From Vicugna vicugna (Eukaryota): 64,000 nucleotides of DNA. Of the stretch, positions 2,440 to 62,100 are shown in pieces. How positions within the stretch are numbered: the first letter of the stretch is position 1; each line of letters opens with the position of its first letter. Location of the stretch: assembly GCA_013265495.1 (NCBI GenBank), contig MU058226.1, positions 644,741 through 708,740 on the forward strand, in the 5' to 3' direction. The notes below the pieces were generated by a model that had not been told where the DNA came from, did no database searches, and saw nothing but the letters and a program-made list of their open reading frames with translations. The translations under genes were made by a program, and so were the position numbers.

Positions 2440-3681
2440 TTTTAAGAATGTAATTGTTTTAATTTTTTTTTCCCTAAGTCAACAAAATATATTTCTTAAT
2501 TTTTTTTCTCTGTGATTTATCATAACATTTTGTGTATATTTCCCTGTGCTATACAGTGTAATCTTGTTTATCTATTCTACAATTTTGAAATCCCAGTCTA
2601 TCCCTTCCCCCCCTCTACCCCCCCCCCCCGGTAACCACAAGTCTGTATTCTCTGTCCATGAGTCTATTTCTGTCCTGTATATATGCTTTGTTTTTGTTTG
2701 TTTGTTTGTTTGTTTGTTTGTTTTTGTTTTTTAGATTCCACATATGCGCGATCTCATATGGTATTTTTCTTTCTCTTTCTGGCTTACTTCACTTAGAATG
2801 ACATTCTCTAGGAGCATCCATGTTGCTGCAAATGGCATTATGTTGTCGGTTTTTATGGCTGAGTAGTATTCCATTGTATAAATATACCACATCTTCTTTA
2901 TCCAGTCACCTGTTGATGGACATTTAGGTTGTTTCCATGTTTTGGCTATTGTAAATAGTGCTGCTATGAACATTGGGGTGCAGGTGTCATCCTGAAGTAG
3001 ATTTCCTTCTGGGTACAAGCCCAGGAGTGGGATTCCTGGGTCATATGGTAAGTCTATTCCTAGTCTTTTGAGGAATCGCCACACTGTTTTCCATAGTGGC
3101 TGCACCAAACTGCATTCCCACCAGCAGTGTAGGAGGGTTCCCCTTTCTCCACAGCCTCTCCAGCATTTGTCATTTGTGGATTTTTGAATGATGGTCATTC
3201 TGACTGGTGTGAGGTGATACCTCATTGTAGTTTTGATTTGCATTTCTCTGATAATTAGTGATATTGAGCATTTTTTCATGTGCTTTTTGATCATTTGTAT
3301 GTCTTCCTTGGAGAATTGCTTGTTTAGGTCTTCTGCCCATTTTTGGATTGGGTTGTTTATTTTTTTCTTATTGAGTCGTATGAGCTGCTTATATATTTTG
3401 GAGATCAAGCCTTTGTCGGTTTCACTTGTAAAAATTTTCTCCCATTCCGTAGGTTTTCTTCTTGTTTTATTTCTGGTTTCCTTTGCTCTGCAGAAGCTTG
3501 TAAGTTTCATTAGGTCCCATTTGTTTATTCTTGCTTTTATTTCTTCTAGGAGAAAATTTTTGAAATGTATGTCAGATAATGTTTTGCCTATGTTTTCCTC
3601 TAGGAGGTTTATTGTATCTTGTCTTATGTTTAAGTCTTTAATCCATTTTGAGTTGATTTTTGTATATGGTGTAAGGGTGTG
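2440..3681 (-). mobile_element. Young 5'-truncated LINE-1 (ORF2 C-terminus plus 3'UTR)
   Basis: Uninterrupted ORF2 C-terminal frame ([29 protein letters not shown]...[16 protein letters not shown]). Perfect 15-bp TSD tctctgaactatttt (2425-2439 and 3682-3696). Confidence 0.95.
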
Positions 3682-3744
3682 TCTCTGAACTATTTTCTAA
3701 AATTTTTTTAACTTTTTAAAAATTTTAACTTTTTATTTTTATTA

Positions 3745-8769: not shown

Positions 8770-10819
8770 CTCCATTTTAAACTATAATGTAATGGAGGAA
8801 AATGTACATCTTAGGGTCAGTGAAGAAAAATGTTTATTGAATGCCAATTCTTTTTTTCCCAATTCTTGTTTCATATATTGCCCCCAAGATCCCTTTTCTC
8901 AAGGAAGTAAATTCTAGTGGAAGGAGACAGTGAACAAATAAAACAAAAGTTCAACTTGTGATCAGTTCCACAAAGTAAATAAAAATGATGATATATGGAA
9001 ACTAGAGTTAAGAGTTTTAGATAAACCACAGGAAAAGTCATGTCTAGGTTAGAAGAATAACTGTGTGTTATTAAGGTATCAAAGAATATCTTCTGTAGGG
9101 AGAATGATGAATCACTTTTGCTGGATAACTTCACCAGGCATTCTCTTCTATAAATATGGGGAGACTGAACCAGAATGTGCAGTCGTAGACATTCTTGTGA
9201 GAAGTGACACACCCAAACGGGCAAAAATCCTGTTCAGGCACAATTCTTTAAGGGGTATGCTTGCTCGGTCTCCTCAACCTGGCCAGCCTAGTAACAGCAA
9301 GTGCCAATTTGGGTCACTTGGATGTTGTACCACTTTTTAACAATAAATGCCTAAAAACATTCTCTAAACACTGGACTTCATAAAGAAAAAAGGAGGATTA
9401 GCTGGCCCTACATGCTGGAATGAGCTGTATACATTCATTGAAGAGATGACAAGCATTGATACGTGTAACAAATTACAAGTGTCATAATGAGTATGAGTAT
9501 AATGTGACTTGGAATCCACCCACCAAAGCTTGTAGTTCAAGGTCCCAGAAGTGGTCAGGGAGGGATTTCCCTTATTCTTTAAGGCTTCATTTTTCCCTTC
9601 GGGGTGTTTTTGCAGCATCTTTACCTTGTCCCTTTCTACCTTCAATACTGTCCAGAGACCAGATGATCGTGCATTTGTCTGGGTCCTCACAGGCAGGAAC
9701 CATGCCCTCCTTCCCAGCAGTACCTTGCAGAGGTGGCCACATTCTGGAGTTGGAGGCTACGTGATGAGATGAGGGAGGCTGACTCAGCAAAGCCTCTGTG
9801 CTTTTGGCAGAACTGCTGACCCAAAGGGACATGAGTGTCTTGAGGGTAATCAGTATGGACCAGTTGACTTTAAGAATTTCACTTATCCTATGTGTCCTTA
9901 TGCCTCTAACTTATGTACAGCCCCAGGATCTTTGGAGAGCAGCAAAAAGGACTAAGATTGAATTGCCCTCTAGTCCAACAGGAACAGAAATTATTTTAAG
10001 TGAAAGAAAATAAAATGCTTCAATAGGTCTTGCACGCTAAGGTTTCTAGGCTGAGTCATACAAGCTATGCTACTTACAGAGATTTCACCTTCTCTGCAAT
10101 TGCTCAGTTATCCTTGAGGCGCGGAAACAATATGCAGACTCCCTCAGCTAGAACTTGCGGCTCTAGTGATTCCTATGACATTGCACAAACCAAGACTGCA
10201 TAGGTGCTGCCCCCTTGAAGGCCAAGGCAGATTCTGGAATTCTTTCTGCTTGCCAGTGCTCTTTAGTGAATGCTCAGCCCCAAATCCCAGCCTGGACTGG
10301 GAGAGTTTTATGGTGAAGATCAGACTTTTTTTTAAGTGTTTGGTAACTAAGAGACCATGATCTCATGCATCACGAAGAAAAACACAGTTAATTAAATTAT
10401 GATATGCCATTGACTGTAAGATGTATTCCCATATGAGAGGTGTTGAATGTGAAAATTATTATATATCTTACATTTATGAAATATGATAAATGACTTCTGG
10501 TGAGTCACTTAACATTTCTGGGGCTTTGTTTCCTTATGAAATAGACAGATATACCATTCATTCATTCACCCAATCACTCTTCTTTCCTGGTATAAACTGA
10601 TACCCTTGCTACAGAGAGTTTCTTGAATCACAAACTTCCTTTTCCATCGCTGCTTCCATGGGAGGTCATTTTATTATTATTCTTCCACTCCCTACTTGTG
10701 CATAGGTTACGTGTTCTCAAACTCTTAGCACTAGAAAGGACCTACTGTAGTGTTTCCCTAGATGGAGTCTGTGGATGTATTCTTGGAAGTCCATCATGTC
10801 CATATGATATTTAGAAAGA

Positions 10820-12992: not shown

Positions 12993-13416
12993 GAGAGAGA
13001 GAGAGGGGGGCCTTTTCATATTTTTTTTCATTGTAGGCCATTAAATGTATTGAATGTATTTCCCTGTGCTATACCGTAGGACCTTGTTGTTAAGAATATC
13101 TCTTATATTTGAGTTGTGTGTGTCTCCCCCAAATAGTTTTTAATGACTAAACCTGGTAGATAGGAAAAGGCAATTTTCCTGAGGCTGTAATCATGGCCAG
13201 ACAGAATTAGGTGATACTAAGAGCAGACAGGCATTCTTCTGAGTGTCCCTAAGGTGCTTATCCCCAGGGCCAGCTGCCTTCTTCATCTGGTGGTTCCGGG
13301 GCTCCAGATGGGGGGTGTGGAGGCCCCAGGACACACACCCTGCTTCATGGTCCCGTGGAGGCCGACAGAAGTCTGATTTGCTCTATAACCAGCTGTAGTC
13401 ACTGCTGGGATCTTCT

Positions 13417-13497
13417 TCATGGAGTGCTCCGATCCATGACAGGGGGGTGATAAACAGCTCTGGCGGGTGGATTAAATGGATGCAGGAAACAGTTTTT
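13417..13497 (-). CDS. HCG22: HCG22 orthologue exon 3, cytoplasmic tail
   Basis: Acceptor ctttctttcactctag|, then KNCFLHPFNPPARAVYHPPVMDRSTP*. It shares the AVY.P motif with the MUC21 tail. Candidate AATAAA at 12824-12829. Spliced product is 251 aa. Confidence 0.7.
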   Translation of the reverse strand, partial: KNCFLHPFNPPARAVYHPPVMDRSTP

Positions 13498-14532
13498 CTA
13501 GAGTGAAAGAAAGCGGTTTGGTTTCAAGACTTGGTTTGTCCTTTATGCTGTACACCAGAAGTTGACACATTGTAATTGACTATACTTCAGTTAAAACAAT
13601 TACCACCACCAAAAAAAAAAAAAAAAAGACTTGGTTTGTCTTTTAACCCTGGTGGTTGTGATTTATCAAGATCCATCCAGTTCATCTCTCTGACTCCTTC
13701 CTATTTACCATTTTCTTCAGATCCTGACACTTCCCACAAAAGAGACACAACTTCCAAAAATGTTGATGTCATGTGGGAAAAATAAAACTATTTTGATCAG
13801 TGGAATTGTGGGGAGGAATGGAAATAAAGATAATTCATATTTTAAAAACTTTTTTTGTCAAATGTTTGAAAGTTTAAAATTCAGCAAGTTCGGGAACACA
13901 GACTTTCCCCTTACTTCCTGTACCCTGAGACTTTTGAACCATCTCTTGTTTTCAGTCTCTACAAGGGGTTAAGAAGGTGCCAGTGATCACTCAGTGCCAC
14001 ACTTAGAGGCTGGTTTGGAGGGAGGAAAGGACCCACCAGCCTGGAGCAAGAGAATCTGACTTTTCATCATGATTCACATGATCAAAAGCTCACTTGTTTG
14101 TGATCACAATGAAGTCAAGAAGGTCCTCCCTCTACTGATGAATATTGAATGTGACTCATGCGTGTGCCAAGTAGATACTGAAGCTTTCATTTTGTCAGCC
14201 GTCCTTCAGAATGCCCTAGTTTCACAGTGTGATTTTGGTGAGATTAAACCATGAACATCTCAACTGAGCAGAGCATTACTTTTGGCTTAATCACACTTAT
14301 AAACCGATCCCGAGTTGTGGGTCTGCTGCTTGGGCCAGAGGTCAGTGCACAATGGCATCAGTGACCAACAAGAATGATTGAGGGTTTTTTTTTTTTGAAT
14401 GAGGTTTTAATGACCTGTATGAGCTAGCTAATTGTCTAAGCCACCCCTTGCTAAGATTCCACCGTAGGATGACACCAAAGGACCAGTCCTTCCCCATCCA
14501 GCAGAGACCAGAAGTTGAAGGCTTGGATTTTA

Positions 14533-14635
14533 ATACTTGTTCTTCTTCTTCTTTTTTAAATGGAGGTACTGGGGACTGAACCCAAGACCTCGTGCATGAG
14601 GCATGAGCTCTACCATTGAGCTATAGCTTCCCCCC
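14533..14635 (-). mobile_element. tRNA-derived SINE (vic-1-like)
   Basis: Same consensus; TSD aaggcttggatttta (14518-14532 and 14636-14650). Confidence 0.88.
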
Positions 14636-15365
14636 AAGGCTTGGATTTTAGACCAAAAGTCAGCAAGAGGAAGTCACAGGCTGGCACAGAGTCCTTTTAT
14701 CTCCTTTTGTAGAAACGAGGCCCCTCAGAGACATTAAAAGACCCAGAACTCCCCACTGAGAGCTGTCACGCATTGTCTCTCCAGGAAAGAGTAGCTGTGC
14801 TCATTAAAACCTACCCAGTCCTGATTTTAATGATCTTTTGCAGAATTTCAGGGTGGGTGGTATTAATACAAAACAGCACAATTTCTGACACAAGTGGCCA
14901 TCTAAAATGTTTCCATTTTCTCCTGTTACCCCTCAATTTCTCATCTCTGAAAAGTTCCAAACATCTATCTTTAACCTTATAGTTTAATCCTTGCTCCAGC
15001 TCTCACCATGTCTCACTATATTTGTGTTTTTGTGGTCCTCTTTCTGTCCATTTTATCTCTCTGCATACTCTCTCCCCTTCCCTCTTCCTCTCCTTTCTCC
15101 CTCTGCCTTTTCCACCTTCCTCCCTCCACCTCTTCCACCTTCCTCCCTCCGCCTCTTCCACCTTCCTCCCTCCCTCAGTTCTGCCCTCAATTTTTATGCT
15201 TCCCTTTCTTTCTCTCCATCTCTGTCTCTCTGTGTCTTTGCAAAGCTCTATGCAGGTGTCCTCATGCCTGATGATTTCACACGCCTCAGTTCCCAATGCC
15301 CACCTCATCCTCCTCAGATGCCCTGTTCCCATGATGTCCTTAACATTTCAGGGCCAAATACTCAC

Positions 15366-15973
15366 CACAAGGAAGCCAAATCCAACAAAGAGTGCAACAG
15401 TGACAGCGGTGGCAGCCAGGGAAATGAGGATGATTCTGATGGGTGTCTGGAGCCCAGGGGGTTTCACTGCCGTCACTGAATCTGTTTCCTCTGGGTGAGT
15501 GTCTGGGTGTTTAGTGGTGTAATTTTCTGTGTCTTCAGTCCCTGGTTCTGAAGTGGTGTAGTCCTCCATGGTCCCTAGGTCTGCTGTGGTGTAATCCTTT
15601 GTGGTCCCCAGGTGTGCTGTGGTGCGGTCCTCTCTGGTCCCCGGGTCTGCTGTGGTGCGGTCCTCTGTGGTCCCCGGGTCTGCTGTTGTGTGGTCCTCTG
15701 TGGTCCCCGGGTCTGCTGTGGTGTGGTCCTCTGTGGTCCCCGGATCTGTGGTGGTGTAGTCCTCTGTGGTCCATGGGTTGGCTATGATGTAGTCCTCTGT
15801 GGTCCCCGGGTCTGTGGTGGTGTAGTCCTCCATGGTCCATAGGTCTGCTGTGTTGTCCTCCATGGTCCCCAGGACTGCTGTGGTGTAGTCCTCTGTGATC
15901 CCTGGGTCTTCAGTGGTGTGGTCCTCCCTGGTTCCTGAATTCAAGGTGGTGTAGTCTGCAGAGGCTCCTGTGT
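15366..15973 (-). CDS. HCG22: HCG22/PBMUCL2 orthologue exon 2: DPGTTED repeat domain and TM helix
   Basis: Acceptor ctttctctacag|AC. Stop-free 608 nt with ADPGTTEDHTT repeats and TTKHPDTH (recalled human PBMUCL2: ADPGTTEDSVT...TTKHGDTHLL), then [33 protein letters not shown]|gtgagt (phase 0). Confidence 0.82.
15549..15941 (-). repeat. Coding VNTR, about 12 x 33 bp (11 aa, DPGTTEDHTTA)
   Basis: Visible in DNA (gtcctctgtggtccccgggtctgctgtggtg) and in the translation. Confidence 0.9.
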
Positions 15974-17074
15974 CTGTAGAGAAAGTCTTTTTTAATGTGG
16001 ATCATTGATGCCCATCATCATCTGTTCTGCTTAATATTTTTCATAACTTTCTTGCCCATTCAAATGATATCTTTCCCCATATAATGTGGTTGGACTTATT
16101 TGAGTTAAGTATCATCTGATATTTTAGATTTAATTCTGATTAAACGTATTCCACAAGATGCCCTACAATATGGAGTATCCAGATCTAATTCATGTCCTTA
16201 GACGGTCTTCTCATCCAGCCTTTGATTCTCCCTTTGTGGTTCTAGTCTCTTTGTAGACCTCACTTCCCCCTGCATTGGTATGTCAGCAATCCAGCCATTC
16301 TGACTCCACGTTTGTATGTGTTGCCTCTCATCCAGGTATGCCTGGGTCTCTGGCAGACAAGTGAGGCAGGAGCTATGACTTTTATTAGAGATTAAATTCA
16401 GGTCATGGGTTGGTATATGATTTAGAATGAGGCATCTCCCGGGTTGGATCCGGGGCAGAAGTGGCAAGATCGAAGGCAGGTAATAGTCAAGGTGGTCTGA
16501 GGGTAGGAGGAGTCATAAGGGGTGGTGAGTGTGGTTTGGCTGGGGTTGACAGCAGCACTGAGTTGGATATAAGTAGAAGGAAGAAATTAATCTTTTCCCC
16601 TCCCACCACCCCCACCTGCAGGGCATCAGGACTGAGAGTATTTACTCTCATCAATAAATGCAGCCTAAATGGCATAAATTTTAGAGTCTTGGGTTCCTTT
16701 GCCCCAGAGAGTTCATCCTACCTGCTGCTGATTCCCCCAAATTCCTCAAATAAGGCTCAAATCTTTCATTTCTTAAGGAAAGTTGAAATACAGGAACTTA
16801 AAGTCTAAACAATCAAAATCAGAGAATTTCCTTAAGAGAAGATGCTGGAAAGAGATGAACAGGAACCCTGGGAACACTGCTTCCCTGTGATAGGGAGTTT
16901 GGGGCAGGTCACTAGGTCCAGAGATCCCCAAGGTCCTCTCATCTATCCTGTTAACTTCACTCAAGACTGACCCTGCCTGAGTCCTAAGAGGACCTTCTCC
17001 AAGGATCCCGATCCCCACATCTCCAGACCCTGGGGAACTTTTGTGCCCTTTTCTCCAAAAAATAGTTCACTCAC

Positions 17075-17141
17075 CCAGTTCTAAACACCCAAAGAGAAGC
17101 AGCAGCAGAAGAGATGTGGCAGGGCATTTTCTTGTTTTCAT
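17075..17141 (-). CDS. HCG22: HCG22/PBMUCL2 orthologue exon 1, signal peptide
   Basis: ATG at 17141 gives MKTRKCPATSLLLLLLFGCLEL-G|gtgagt (phase 1). TATAAA at 17243-17248. Confidence 0.78.
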
Positions 17142-18231
17142 CGCTAGAGAATCCACATGGGCTGGAAGCCAGGATGTCTTTTCCTCCCTCCTCGCTACTT
17201 TTTCTGTCTTCCCTTCTCCTTAAGTGCACAGTGGCTGTGACGTTTATATGAGCTGCTGCTAAAGGAATCAGGAAGCCTGGGTCTTCTTTCCTTCTTTCAG
17301 GGAGGAACAACCGCTCCTCTACTCTCTGTCAATCAAGGGAATAAGAATCTGTTAGAGAGGAGTGACAGGGCGGAAGAGAGATGTCACAGATGCAAGAAGA
17401 GGATCTTGGCTCTGGTCCAGGGCCCAGAGTTGAGCGGTAACAGGGGATCAAGCTTGTCATCATGGGTGGCATCACTTTCAGATGCAGAGCCCTAGGCAAA
17501 AGCTGTCCGCCACACCATGTCTCAGTGCTCGGAGAAGGGCTTGAACTTCCTTTTCTGCAGGTGGGCGTGGGAAGGTTGGGGTGACTAAGGAGGGTACATG
17601 CCAGGTCTGCCTGGGGGACAGTGCATGGTAAGAGGAGAACTAGATGTCAGAGGGCATAGAGCATCTTAGTCCTTAACAGGAAGGAGCATTGATGAGGGAG
17701 GTGGAAACACTCAATCTCTTTATCTTAAAACCACCCTCTTCTCTCAGTCATCCACCAAAGTCTTTTTCAGTGGCTCATCTCCCACCTGCAGTTTTACCTC
17801 CTTGCTCCTATTACTTGATTGCCCTCACCCCACTAAGCTTCCCTCAGTGACTAGATGAAATTAGTTCACCTCCAAGGGTCCCATTGGGCTTGGAATGAGA
17901 AAACCCATGCTCCTTCCTTTTCTGACTCCCATCCCGGCCTCATTCAACATTGTCCAGAAAATTATAGCAGCTTGTTCTCATTCAGAGGCAGGAAGTTTCC
18001 TGCCCTTTGGGGGGCATCTCTTTCCCAGTGTCATCCTAAGTGGAATAGGAACTAGGGATTACAGGAAGGCTGGGACAATGTTCCCGTCTCTGATGGCAGC
18101 TGATTTTATGAAAGCCAATTTAATGAATGGCCAGTATACCAAACTTAATTGATTACTTCAACTACTAACTTTATTTGAATGGATTAAATATTTTTGAGAA
18201 AAATATTTAGATAAATTAAGAAGGTATTTGT

Positions 18232-23800: not shown

Positions 23801-26151
23801 TCAGGACCACTCGTGTCTCCCAGTCAGCTCCATGGCTGCAGGAAGAAACAGGTCTCCTCTGAAATCAGTTACAGTTGCCCTCGACCCTTCTGGGACTTCA
23901 TAAGAGCCATGAGGGTATGGCCATGGTGGTGGTGCGAGATCTACGCTGAAGAGGTTTCTTAGGCTCAGAGAGTTTCTCTAGAAAACAAAAGGCTGAATAG
24001 TTTCAGAGCTTTGCCCCTTCTTCCAGTGCTCTCCAGTCTCAAGCACCCTCTTCCTGCCAGCTCTCCCCACCTCGTTATTTCTTTTTCCCCTCAGCAGTTC
24101 TTTTTCCCCTCAGCAGTTCCGTCTGAATATGTCTTGGCTTTTCTGACCCTCTGTCTTGCTGGCTGTAACCTGGGGTTTCTGTGTCTTCCCTGATTTTTCA
24201 TCCCTGTTACTCCCACAGTGACCCTGCTCTCTCTAGCCTAGTTCCTTCCTCACTTCCCTGCTCTCTTTCCCTTAGAAAAAGAGTTTCCTATACATCAGGC
24301 ACTCACAAAATGGAAGAGGAGTCCAGTGAGGAGAGTCACCGCCATTGCAACCGAGGCCAGAGTGACCAGGACGACTTCCCCAGGCCTCAGGTATCCTTTA
24401 GCGTTTTCCTCTTTCCTTGGTGGGGCAGGACTTGTGCTGGTGCCATTGGAGGTTGTAGCTGTTGTATTAGTTCCACGGGGTGGTGTGGTTGGTCCAGGGG
24501 AGGTGACTGTGGTGGTCCTGCTGGATGGTGTGGTTGATTCAAGAGAGACGGCTGTTGTGCTAGCATTAGAAGTGACAGCTTATTAAAAAAGGTTGGCTGG
24601 TTAGTTCCATTAGAAATTGTGCTTGGTTCTGCAACTACCACTCCTGCTGTCAACAACAATAATAGCTATCACTTATTGAATGCTGACGATGTTCCGGGCG
24701 TTGTGCTAAGTGCCACAGAAGACTTAGTACTTCAAATACTCATAATACCTTCGTGAGATAGGAACTGCTATTACCCCCATTTTACAGATAGGGAAATTGA
24801 GGTTTAGAGAAGTTAAACAACTAGTCCCAGGTTAGACAGCTAGCAGGACACAGAACAGGGATTTAAACCAAGGCAGCCGGACGCTAGAGGCAGCCCTTAA
24901 CTCATATTCTGGTCTGTAGCCTAGGTCGCATAACCTGGGGACTCACGTGACCCGGGGTCACAGGTGTTATTCCTTCTCTATTTGTGATGCTCTCCAGATA
25001 AAGAATATAAAAGAGATGGTTGCAGGGTCCATGTGTGTATATTGAGCTCCTCTCCAGATGAACTATACCCTTCTTCTAGGGGAGACATAATCAAGGGGAA
25101 GTGTGGGAGGGGGAATAATGCGCATTTTTACTACTATCAGGTAATTATTATGCACACAAAAGTTTGGGACCCCACGCAGCCTTGGCCCCTGGCCTGGCAG
25201 AGAACTAGCCACATGAGCTGGAGGAGGTGAGATCTCCCAGGGTTCCTGGAAGGGACCCAACCTCCTTGGTTAGTGAGTTAGAGTTAAGGTGAGGCCCGTG
25301 CTTTTCCCGTCTGCCTCATGCCTATTTTCTACCCTGTTCTGATTTTCCATCCCAGTAAACAACCCAGCTCTTGGCCTCCCGGGTGCCTAAATACCCTCAC
25401 GTCATCCATGGTCCTGTGCTTCTGCTGGGATATGGGTTTTCTTCCCCTTGCTCTATGCATGTGTTCCTTTCTTAGTGTTGTCTGGACTGACATAAAGATT
25501 GCAAGTTTAGATTTAGGGGAAGAATCCAAAAACTTCCAACGAATGCCTCTGATTAGGGTTAGGGTCAGGGTCAAGAGGGAAACTAAGTGAGATGAGAAAC
25601 TGGCCTGTGGAGAGGGGATAGATTTGTTGTGTGTTGTTCAGGGGCATAAAACAAAGGAATCAAAGCCATGTGGGGCAAATTCTGGAAAGAATTTAAGTTA
25701 TTCGAGGATAGAACAGCACACCCCCTGACAATTTTAGTTAGAGGCTAGGTGACCGCCGTCAGAGATGCTGGAAATGGACCCCTGCCTACTGTGGGTGATC
25801 AGACATTAACTTTAAGTTTCCTTTCAACTCGAATGCATCTCAATCGGAGACTGATTTATTACAAAGGAAATAGGCCAGACTTCCAGGTAGAAGAGTTGTT
25901 ACTGGGACCAGAATGAAGAACAAATGCTAGGTTGGATTGAAGAGAGTAGAGCAAAATATTGGTCCTTGCTCTTTGGTGAGAATGAGAGCTAACAGGACAG
26001 AGTGTGCAACCCAGGATTGGTCAACATTTCTCCCACACTCTCCTCAAATTTCAAGACTATCCTCTTTGAAACAAAAACACTCACCATTTCCTAAAAGTAG
26101 TAGAAGGTGAAACCACAGCCAACAAGCAAAGAAAGATGTTTTTCTTTTCAT
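23801..26151 (-). pseudogene. MUC21-like duplicate, disrupted or rescued by an alternative acceptor
   Basis: Exon 1 is 26085-26151 (MKRKTSFFACWLWFHLLLLLGN-G|gtgagt), with TATAAA at 26427-26432. Exon 2 ends at 24307 with KGYLRPGEVVLVTLASVAMAVTLLTGLLFHF|gtgagt. The paralogous acceptor at 24646 is out of frame with the TM; an AAG acceptor at 24578 is in frame. Exon 3 (23801-23977) starts [16 protein letters not shown] at 23614-23619. Confidence 0.7.
24660..24900. mobile_element. MIR abutting exon 2 of the MUC21-like duplicate
   Basis: Core cccattttacagatagggaaattgaggtttagagaagttaaacaact. Confidence 0.75.
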
Positions 26152-33700: not shown

Positions 33701-34492
33701 AGGAAGTCTTTCCCTTGATAAAAGAGGAAGTGCTTTCTCTCTGCTTCCGAGAGAAAACTATCAACTAGCACCTTTATTCTGACAAGTAGCCCAGGTCTGG
33801 AGCTTTTGTAGATGCCCTGGAAGCTGTGACTGTGAGTGACCACACCCCACCCCACAGCACACCTCCACCTGTCATGCTCTGGGTTCTCTGTGTGCTACCA
33901 CGTGATCTCTTTGTTCCATAGGCCTATTCCATGAGCCCCGCTGGGATCCTGGCACCTGCCCTCCCTTCTCATCTCTCCCAATTCAATTCTCTTGTCTGTC
34001 TGGGTGAGTCTTGGGGACACCGGGTTCCTGCTTGGGACAAGAAGGATTAGAAAAAGGGGACAGATATAAATGACATCTCTCAGGTTTACTGTGGAGATTC
34101 TGAATGACAGGTGGACTCCAGCATGAGGTTCTCTTATACCACTGGGAAATTCAGCTCGGCGCTGCAGACACCCACTCATGTGCACACACAGGTGTTCTCT
34201 GGGATATAGTTTGTATGTGTTTATTTCTTAATTGTTGTTAAATGACCAACAGAGTCTCCTCTTTCCAGTGTCTGGTAAAAGCAAGAGAGAGGGAGGAAGT
34301 GTCTTCCCCAAGGCTGGCAGAGACCCAAACAAAGCTGCAAAGGGGACTCCTGGGGACAAATGAAAGGACACTCAGATCTCTGGTTCCCCAGGTCAACTTT
34401 CTCTGTAAAGAATGTGGCCCTCTGGCTCCTGCAGCCACTCAGAACCCATTGTAGCTCTCTCATCTCCAACACTATTGAGGAACTGGTCTTCT

Positions 34493-34624
<132 letters not shown>

Positions 34625-41849: not shown

Positions 41850-46170
<4,321 letters not shown>

Positions 46171-59173: not shown

Positions 59174-62100
59174 CTAGCAGCCCTGTGAAATGAGAGATGG
59201 AGAGGATGGGTTAACCGAGGGCCCCAGGAACCTGCTGGCCAGCCCTCAGCTCTCCCCACGGACTGCTGCCTCCCTCAATAACTCAGGTTCTCAGAGTGCC
59301 TCTTCCAGCAAAAACAATCATAATAATGAATTGGACTAATTTACTGAGCACTTACTATGTGCCAGGCACCTAAGTGCTTTACATGCATAAACTCATTTAA
59401 TCTTCCAACAGCCCTGAGATGAATACTATCCTTCTCATTTTATCCAAGACTAAATTACCTCATTGGTAGAATGAGAGGAATAATATTACCTATATCACAG
59501 GGCTGCTGTGAACTAAAATGTGGCACTTGGCACATAATAAGTGCTGTTCAAGTGTTAGTTATTATTATTATTCATGAGGCATCTGGAGCACAGAGAGGTT
59601 GAGTAACTTGAACAAAATCACACAGTTATAATGGCAGAGCCAGGATTCAAAACCCAGGTTCTGTAACTTCATGGAGTTGATTCTTCACTGCCTAGAGCTG
59701 AATTTAGTGCTTCCAGGGGCTGGTCAGCCTGCAGTGCTCCCCGGCCTCTCCTTCAGTGGCCGCATCCCTGCCTGGTCAATGCTTCTCAGCCACCCAGACT
59801 GGGGTTCCGTTTTCCCCTTGCCCCTCCCTAAGTGTGGCAGGCTGTCATCTTTTCCCGAAGCCCCTGTTCATCTTGAAGTTCCGGGGCACTAGGTCCCAGC
59901 CCCGCTGGCCTCAGAGACCCACATATTTGGACCATAGCTTCCACTCACCTTCTTAATACCATACAGTAGGCTGAAGACTGCTGTCACCACAGTGAGAGTG
60001 ATCAACACGATGGCCCAGTCTGGGACAGAGCCCTTTCTCTGAGGCTTCAGGCCTGAGGAACAGAGGGGGACAGTGACCAAGGCCAGTGGGACCCCAATGC
60101 CCCCATCCTCCACTGCCCTCCATGACCTCCCATCTTTCCTTCTGTGATGCTGATGTCTGTGCAATTCTAAGACCACGTTTCTCTGTGGAGTTCTGTCTTG
60201 TCATCTTGGGAACAGAATCTCACTAGAGGGGTTTTAAAGGGCATCAATCCAAGCCCCAGCCACTCTTCCCTGACACCTGTGGGCATGTCCTTCAATCTCT
60301 AAACTCCTCACTGACATCCACATCTCTCCATCTTTCTGAACCCTCCTCCATATTGCAGGCTCTACTTTCCGTGTCTCTCTCCACCTGTGATGTCTGCCCT
60401 GCAAGGGTCCCCAGGTGGGCCTCTCTCCTTCTTCTGAGGCCCTTTCCTCTCCACTGCCCCAGCCCAACTCTGGTCACTAAAAGGAGCCAGAGCTTGTTGT
60501 CCGGTTTTCTCTCCACTCATTTCTTGCCTTCAGACTGTCGGGAGAGGGTGAGAGGGGTAGACTAGGATTGAAGGGGCAGGGAGAAGGGGACAGAGGGAGG
60601 AGGGAGGACAGGATCTCTGGAAGGGATGCTTGTCGCCCTGGATAGGCAGATCGGGCCACAGGGAAAGAAGTCAAAAACCAGGTAACAATCAGGTAACAGA
60701 CATCTGGCTGCTGGTCTGACCAGAGGCTTTGAGAGGGCACTGAAACCCTTTTAAGAATTGGAGACATCCTCAGACATCCTCAGAACACAGTTGAAAGCAG
60801 GCACTAATGCCTGTCCCTACACTCATCTCCAGGAGCCAAGGTGCCTGCAGGTCAATGACCCAGTGCAAGTAAGAGTGCCTTACTGGTCAGGATGCTGAGC
60901 CCTGGGGATGTTGTGGCTGTGCTAGCCATGGTGGTCATGGAGCCTCCTGACACAGCCCCACTGGGTGTGGAAGTCCCAGGTACAGCTGAAGCAGTTCCAG
61001 GGGCTGTCATGGGGGAAACATATCCTAGAAGGGCAGAGGGGAAAAATGGCTGGAAGAGATCTGAGTGAGAGCAGAAGCAGAAATTATGTCTAGTGTCCTC
61101 TCCATTGAAATCCTGGGAAAGTTTTTTGGTAGAAATTGATCAACTGAGTCAATAAAAATGAAAGGATTGAGAATAGCTAGGACAATCTTAAAGAAAAACA
61201 AAAGTGGAAGACTTACACTACCAGATCTCCAGACTTGCTGCAAAGCTGCAGTCAGTAAGTACGGCAGCCCTGGAGTGAGAATAGACAGAAGAGAGTCCAG
61301 AAACAGACTCAACATGTATCTGGTGACTTGATTTTTGATAAAGAGATTCACACAATTCTATGGTGGAGAAAGAAGGGGGGTCTTTGAAATAAATAGTCTT
61401 GGAGCAACTGGTTATCTGTAAGGGGAAAAAAGGAAACTTGACCCCTACCTCACTCCATACACAGAAATTAAGCTGAGATACACCATAGGCTTACATTTGA
61501 AAGCTAAAGGAATAAAGCTTCCAGAAGAAAGAATAGGAGAATATTTTCATGACCTCAAAGTAGGCAAAAAAAAAAAAAATGTCAGGCAGGATACAAAAGA
61601 CACTATAAGAGAAAAAGTTGACATGTTGAAAAGCAGAAAGAGGGCCTTTGTATAGCCACCAAGGCCAGCGCACTGCTTCAGTGAGTTTCCAGGGAACTCA
61701 TATCTTACTCGTGGCAGAGAACCGGAAGCCCCCACCCAGAGCTATGGGCCAAGCTAAGGAGTCCTTCAGAGACAGATTGAGCAACAGAAATATCACTTGG
61801 CAACATTGACGCTGCTCCTGAAGTGCTCCCAGGAACTGTCAGAGATAAAGTCTGAGGACTACTGGGCAGCACCCCAGAGGCTGGAGAAACTGTTGGGAAA
61901 CTCGCTGAGATGGTGGGGAGATCTGCAGAGATGGTAGGGAGACCTGCAGAGATATCCCCAGAGGCAGGGGGTATGCCTTCAGCTACAGTAGAGATCCCCA
62001 ATGGGGTCAGCTGAGCTGTTGGAAGAAGAACATGATAAGATGGTGTCATAAGAGCTGGCCATCTCTCTCGGTCCAGTGTCCACATCTTGACCACAAGGCC

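Follow-up and report, generated by a model that had tools for sequence, protein, structure and literature searches.

The stretch of DNA analysed here, hereafter called the window, comprises 64,000 nucleotides (nt) of the Vicugna vicugna genome (assembly GCA_013265495.1, contig MU058226.1, positions 644,741 to 708,740 of the forward strand) and covers the mucin cluster of the mammalian major histocompatibility complex (MHC) class I region; every gene of this cluster lies on the minus strand. Our subject is the gene at 13417-17141 (minus strand), which is probably the orthologue of HCG22/PBMUCL2 and whose predicted product is a small mucin-like glycoprotein, tethered to the membrane in type I orientation. 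Its features are the following (bp, base pairs; aa, amino acids).

17243..17248, minus strand: TATAAA about 100 nt upstream of the ATG, a likely core promoter element going by its pattern
17075..17141, minus strand: coding part of exon 1, MKTRKCPATSLLLLLLFGCLEL plus the leading base of the following codon; putative signal peptide
15366..15973, minus strand: exon 2 with the ectodomain (repeats and stem) and the transmembrane helix, ending in phase 0 at a GTGAGT donor
15538..15926, minus strand: tandem array of a 33-bp unit in 11.9 copies, encoding an acidic, Thr-rich 11-aa unit of the DPGTTED-xTTA type (Tandem Repeats Finder score 442, 81% matches)
15366..15443, minus strand: transmembrane helix, 24-26 hydrophobic aa, with a hydropathy maximum of 2.5 and a core conserved in relatives
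14552..14640, minus strand: tRNA-derived short interspersed element (SINE) within intron 2; contig depth is very high at 14552-14598, with numerous loose ends
13417..13497, minus strand: candidate exon 3, a 26-aa tail KNCFLHPFNPPARAVYHPPVMDRSTP followed by TGA; paralogue of the MUC21-family tail exon

Gene model and domain layout

An earlier note on this DNA had described a three-exon open reading frame of 251 aa, and such a frame is indeed found: it starts with the ATG at 17141, continues across two GT..AG introns and ends with the TGA at 13417. Both donors read GTGAGT, both acceptors consist of a pyrimidine tract followed by AG, and the junctions lie in phase 1 between exons 1 and 2 and in phase 0 between exons 2 and 3, with exon 2 (608 nt) contributing 202 codons. 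The first donor is needed for the frame, since unspliced reading past it meets a stop two codons further on. A model from elephant seal (P0012) has an identical junction between exons 1 and 2, and the N-termini of primate PBMUCL2-like proteins map to 17132-16992, i.e., to the region of exon 1. The gene is present in a single copy in its own genome (one match). Its second intron measures 1868 nt compared to about 330-345 nt in the paralogues of the cluster, an enlargement due to repeat insertions, namely the SINE listed above and a second repeat near 13541-13640 that is again marked by very high contig depth and by loose ends (13541-13546).

The same note had also seen a signal peptide, about 12 acidic repeats and a transmembrane helix in the product, all of which agree with what we find. 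Kyte-Doolittle windows of 19 residues exceed 1.5 at residues 6-28 (the leader) and reach their maximum at residues 197-233 (the helix); both calls are based on hydropathy and on conservation in relatives. A regular expression for D-x-T-T/A finds 12 unit starts in the repeat, matching the copy number of the tandem array, and the 11-aa acidic, Thr-rich unit is also present in PBMUCL2-like proteins of sheep and primates. With 52 Thr and 4 Ser next to 42 Asp and Glu and 7 Lys and Arg, the 177-aa ectodomain is acidic and rich in threonine, and a stem of the VKPPG type links the repeats to the helix. As both alternative frames of the array are likewise open (for 124 and 68 aa), the open frame within the repeat carries no weight by itself, and the evidence for a coding gene is therefore the leader, the helix and the splice sites.

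Conservation of the helix extends across mammals. Its 24-residue core is identical at all positions to that of a sheep protein (P0001) and at 18 to 22 positions in eight further relatives, out of 14 relatives compared. The last 53 aa of exon 2 are 79% identical to sheep, compared to around 60% for exon 2 and its repeats and 47% for an exon near 9.7 kb that is discussed below. In contigs of a relative that is around 3% diverged, both nucleotide changes within the helix are synonymous, though these numbers are tiny and carry little weight.

Orthology to HCG22 and kinship with the MUC21 family

A protein search with exon 2 gave 14 matches at E <= 0.01 among 7999 scored candidates. Five of them, from sheep, marmoset, colobus, capuchin and crab-eating macaque, are named PBMUCL2-like; the others carry uninformative names (two, from rhesus and elephant seal) or are effectively unnamed (seven), and none of the 14 is named MUC21 or MUC22. 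In the reverse direction, the PBMUCL2-like proteins map best to 15366-15998 and 16992-17132, and they match the 35-kb and 45-kb paralogues far more weakly. A broader listing comprises 64 proteins, of which the 12 examined inform the comparisons made here and the other 52 are probably low-complexity matches. The single metagenome locus returned by a scan (L008) was dismissed as a chance match with a translation that lacks the helix.

The genomic neighbourhood points in the same direction. Within the 60 kb beyond window position 1 lie POU5F1, TCF19, CCHCR1, CDSN and C6orf15, the last of them around 25 kb from the 3' end of our gene, and a scan of the stretch between C6orf15 and this gene revealed no other helix exon. 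This matches the human order, which excerpts of PMC7848197 give as ...CDSN, C6orf15, HCG22. Together, the named matches, the back-mapping and the adjacency to C6orf15 support orthology to HCG22/PBMUCL2 as the earlier note had proposed, an assignment made through non-human relatives.

The closest known counterparts would thus be human HCG22/PBMUCL2 and the PBMUCL2-like models of other primates (P0008, P0009, P0014 and P0019), which share with our gene the leader exon, the 11-aa repeat, the ...TKH-D-H... segment that follows the repeat array and a location beside C6orf15; the primate models differ in having an earlier acceptor for exon 2 and a longer first exon. The sheep PBMUCL2-like isoform X1 (XP_042093387.1, P0001) has the same type of repeat, stem and helix, though the sheep models lack a leader exon and use the 9.7-kb exon as their tail. 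Sheep also carries at least two PBMUCL2-like loci (the second represented by P0015 and P0016), unlike the single copy in the genome studied here. As a side observation, P0001 and P0015/P0016 belong to distinct loci with locus tags five genes apart, and one of these helices is shortened (12 of 24 residues identical to the core in the window).

Within the cluster, the gene appears to belong with the MUC21 family, in line with the kinship that the earlier note had suggested; this placement is supported by a match of the stem and helix to PF14654, which stays just below the cut-off, by a shared exon layout and by DNA homology of the tail exon (see below). PF14654 (Epiglycanin_C, covering stem, transmembrane helix and tail) matches residues 167-201 over profile positions 6-40 of 91 with an E value of 3e-5. 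The order of exons and phases of our gene is identical to that of three paralogues in the window, and in all four family members the helix exon ends in phase 0 at a GTGAGT donor. The counterpoints are that the PF14654 score of exon 2, which was scanned alone, is 24.5 bits and thus just below the cut-off of 27 bits, and that PF05647, the epiglycanin Ser/Thr repeat, finds no match in this exon. A score of this size would be expected for an exon that contains just half of the domain, and the colobus orthologue P0008 reaches 27.4 bits.

MUC21 (epiglycanin), represented in the window by the MUC21-like gene at about 34.5-35.7 kb, resembles our gene in a stem and helix of the PF14654 type (below the cut-off in our gene), in the phase 0 GTGAGT end of the helix exon and in a tail exon with homologous DNA, and both are predicted to be type I tethered mucins devoid of SEA or VWD domains. 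The two genes differ in their repeats (a 45-bp Ser/Thr unit with 82.4 bits to PF05647 in the MUC21-like gene versus an acidic 33-bp unit without PF05647), in their PF14654 scores (63.8 bits for the MUC21-like gene) and in their tails, which comprise at least 43 aa in the MUC21-like gene.

The cytoplasmic tail and the losses of the anchor

The three-exon structure with a tail containing AVYHP is a prediction and the weakest point of our reading. It is supported at the DNA level, where the tail exons of the MUC21-like gene (34496-34624) and of a small gene at 24 kb (23804-23977) have a homologue in 13400-13540: the summed alignment score of 91 compares to 43.9 +/- 6.2 for shuffled sequences and is reached by none of 2000 shuffles and none of 292 control pieces. 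Only the gapped alignment of DNA brought out this homology: tblastn searches with the 26 aa of the tail gave no paralogue at E < 0.05, the tail alone has no match in Pfam, and a regular expression for AVYHP-like motifs recovers only the copy of our gene in the window, with AVYRP or diverged sequences in the paralogues. The acceptor at 13498-13499 is canonical and conserved with the paralogues, and the frame aligns at KN... and AVYHP. Furthermore, the alpaca model of the neighbouring 24-kb gene (P0078) joins its helix exon to a tail exon encoding RNSLSLRN, which shows that the family does splice a helix exon to this kind of tail exon.

Several observations weigh against this tail. At the protein level, the similarity of exon 3 to the paralogous tails is not significant (1064 and 2395 of 5000 shuffles reach the Smith-Waterman score), and the tail stops where that of the MUC21-like gene continues. 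The intron ahead of the AVYHP exon has grown as described above, and the contigs of the 3%-diverged relative carry two non-synonymous changes and one synonymous change in exon 3. Spliced models from other species that extend beyond the helix exon fall into four groups, and an AVYHP-type exon is used by none of them. The models of sheep (P0001 and the P0002 cluster) and Old World monkeys (P0008 and P0019) instead use the 9.7-kb exon, of which the window contains the following counterpart.

9364..9756, minus strand: alternative terminal exon with 130 open codons in phase with exon 2 and an AG acceptor at 9757-9758; counterpart of the exon that ends the sheep models and that the Old World monkey models read in a different frame

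It is a real possibility, which we would put somewhat below an even chance, that the actual mRNA skips the AVYHP exon and ends in this exon, giving a protein of 355 aa with a 130-aa tail, and that the exon at 13497 is a relic of the family tail exon. The tail of sheep P0001 maps to 9753-9478 (E 5e-19) and that of monkey P0008 to 9815-9699, the latter in another frame, so that we could also rule out that the Old World monkey 3' exon is the AVYHP exon read in a different frame. A pyrimidine tract precedes the AG at 9757-9758, and the swelling of intron 2 by repeats would fit an AVYHP exon that has fallen out of use. However, the sheep and monkey models differ in frame and acceptor for the 9.7-kb exon, and the identity to sheep includes indels and looks unconstrained. 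Two further models use still other 3' exons, P0020 with a tail mapping to an exon at 12.6 kb (12655-12584) where the window has a stop, and P0021 with a tail that has no match in the window, so that the models reveal no conserved tail; the acceptor at 13498-13499, in contrast, has been kept in the paralogues. The AVYHP tail of the earlier note thus stands as far as its open frame and its descent from a MUC21-family tail exon are concerned, while its use in a transcript finds no parallel in the spliced models. The product may therefore end with the 26-aa exon at 13497 (251 aa) or with the terminal exon at 9756 (355 aa), and both alternatives are live. Tethering is independent of this choice because the helix lies in exon 2.

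Whether the anchor is ancestral can be judged from the relatives. In the alignment, ...HLL closes the models of capuchin (P0009) and crab-eating macaque (P0014), 24 residues short of the helix. At the following codon, the colobus model P0008 has R (HLLR...) and that of pig-tailed macaque (P0019) has Q (HLLQ...), and both continue via TTSVTAVKP... into an intact helix. The rhesus model P0011 also continues past this point and then suffers a frameshift inside the helix. Non-primate relatives have G at the position of the primate stop, and the window has E. The reading through this point into a transmembrane helix that the earlier note had reported for the window is thus shared by the colobus, pig-tailed macaque and rhesus models.

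Proteins ending at ...HLL would be secreted, and with an end 24 residues before the helix they are most simply seen as derived truncations of the tethered form, so that the shorter primate forms are likely the result of later truncation. Human PBMUCL2, which we take to end at ...HLL as well, agrees with the capuchin and macaque models. Artiodactyls and two Old World monkeys have the tethered form, as do several unnamed mammalian contigs, and the anchorless forms are unlike one another; this pattern fits a mucin that was tethered in the ancestor and lost its anchor later, in separate events. That the ancestral form of HCG22 was a membrane-tethered mucin is well supported by these non-human models. 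Hence, the proposal of the earlier note that the ancestral gene encoded a membrane mucin is supported by the comparison of proteins, and its second half, a truncation of the human form, would parallel the models of capuchin and crab-eating macaque.

Not all lineages have kept the anchor. Besides the rhesus model, the elephant seal model P0012 has a frameshift just before the helix, and the helix is shortened or shifted in P0002, P0010 and P0032. Selection on the gene is therefore not universal, as seal, rhesus and other lineages have broken or shortened versions of it.

If the gene is expressed as predicted, its leader would be cleaved and the repeats, judging from their composition, would be densely O-glycosylated. 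The ectodomain would then form a negatively charged coat that projects from epithelial cells and prevents adhesion or acts as a lubricant, as MUC21 is described to do, and the short basic segment after the helix would face the cytoplasm. It counts against this picture that the earlier note's "intact" refers to an open frame and that expression and both splice junctions are predictions. The contigs covering 13300-17300 look genomic, with introns covered like exons and one of the contigs running unspliced across the exon 2 donor; they contain no joint at 17075>15973 or 15366>13497 and are uninformative on splicing and expression.

We consider it unlikely that the locus is decaying or a non-coding RNA gene also in this animal, with an open frame that is left over without a working membrane protein. 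This view could draw on the treatment of human HCG22 as a long non-coding RNA in many papers (e.g., in excerpts of PMC8815030), on the broken genes of seal and rhesus and the truncated models of capuchin and crab-eating macaque, and on the different 3' exons of the various models. In addition, no protein model in the collection searched exceeds 69% identity, so none of them is plausibly camelid. Yet the leader, the splice sites, the 202-codon exon 2 and the helix are all intact, and the helix is identical to that of sheep at 24 of 24 positions compared to 47-60% identity nearby. Human PBMUCL2 (UniProt E2RYF7) has been measured as a plasma protein, as far as excerpts of two proteomics studies go (PMC12190617 and PMC11916961), which argues for a translated gene and is as expected of a secreted product.

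A more speculative idea, to which we would give little credence, is that the anchor of HCG22 was lost repeatedly and independently (by a stop at one codon in some primates and by frameshifts in rhesus and seal) not through mere decay but because selection favoured, within the MHC, the repeated replacement of a tethered protein by a shed or secreted one, e.g., as a soluble decoy, with the tethered form maintained in camelids, ruminants and some Old World monkeys.

Neighbouring genes of the cluster and implications

The remaining members of the mucin cluster in the window are the following.

23804-24579, minus strand: small mucin-like gene in the place of human MUC22, comprising a Ser/Thr/Pro exon of around 90 aa whose end encodes a helix (24310-24579) and a tail exon encoding RNSLSLRN (23804-23977)
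35 kb, minus strand: MUC21-like exon (PF05647 82 bits, PF14654 64 bits)
45005-45232, minus strand: helix exon of an unnamed gene between the MUC21-like gene and MUCL3, with 63.5 bits to PF14654 as strong as the MUC21-like gene (63.8 bits)
49.6-50.9 kb, minus strand: MUCL3-like exon

In alpaca, the small gene (23.8-24.6 kb) is matched by LOC116284500 (214 aa, P0078) with 94% identity. Human MUC22 comprises 124 repeats of 90 nt and 1773 aa according to excerpts of PMC5411776, next to which its counterpart in this genome seems tiny, barring loss or collapse of the array in the assembly. MUC22 (PBMUCL1) is described in the same excerpts as a transmembrane mucin of this cluster, much like the predicted product of our gene, and the window contains no large MUC22-type exon; nevertheless, it is very improbable that the gene at 13417-17141 is a MUC22 orthologue with a collapsed repeat array and not HCG22, given that the separate small gene (24310-24579 plus 23804-23977) fills the place between it and the MUC21-like gene, that its named relatives are all PBMUCL2-like, that it abuts C6orf15 as HCG22 does and that its 33-bp unit is unlike the 90-nt unit of MUC22 (PMC5411776, again in excerpts).

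Some observations on the surroundings stand on their own. The tail exon of the MUC21-like gene (34224-34624, minus strand) stops after ...TPNWY, and another frame is open from 34502 to 34224 (...SSSIVLEMRELQW...), pointing to a frameshift that affects the cytoplasmic tail encoded by this gene in the genome studied here. The unnamed gene with the helix exon at 45005-45232 has a Gly/His-rich downstream exon at 42002-42306, and both exons match the N-terminal part of the fused model P0021. Upstream of MUCL3, a hydropathy scan detected the helix-bearing exon of a membrane-protein gene at 59892-60200 (minus strand), and a fragment of long interspersed element 1 (LINE-1) ORF2 with an open frame of 321 aa lies at 2731-3696 (minus strand).

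The literature on human HCG22, as far as excerpts of it go, is divided between many cancer papers that speak of a "lncRNA" (long non-coding RNA) and plasma proteome studies that list "Protein PBMUCL2", and association studies link the locus to asthma, psoriasis and steroid-induced ocular hypertension. Our literature search, which did not extend to two primary papers on the human gene, returned no paper on a membrane-anchored ancestor of HCG22. The step taken here is modest: helix-bearing PBMUCL2-like models have already been annotated in sheep and colobus, and no new mechanism is proposed. Nonetheless, the conserved anchor of the intact orthologues suggests that the gene was built as a small, tethered, acidic mucin of the MUC21 cluster. 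The human product, whose end-point we presume as stated above, would then be framed as a truncated and secreted derivative of this mucin, which provides a protein-level hypothesis for a locus that is usually interpreted as RNA.

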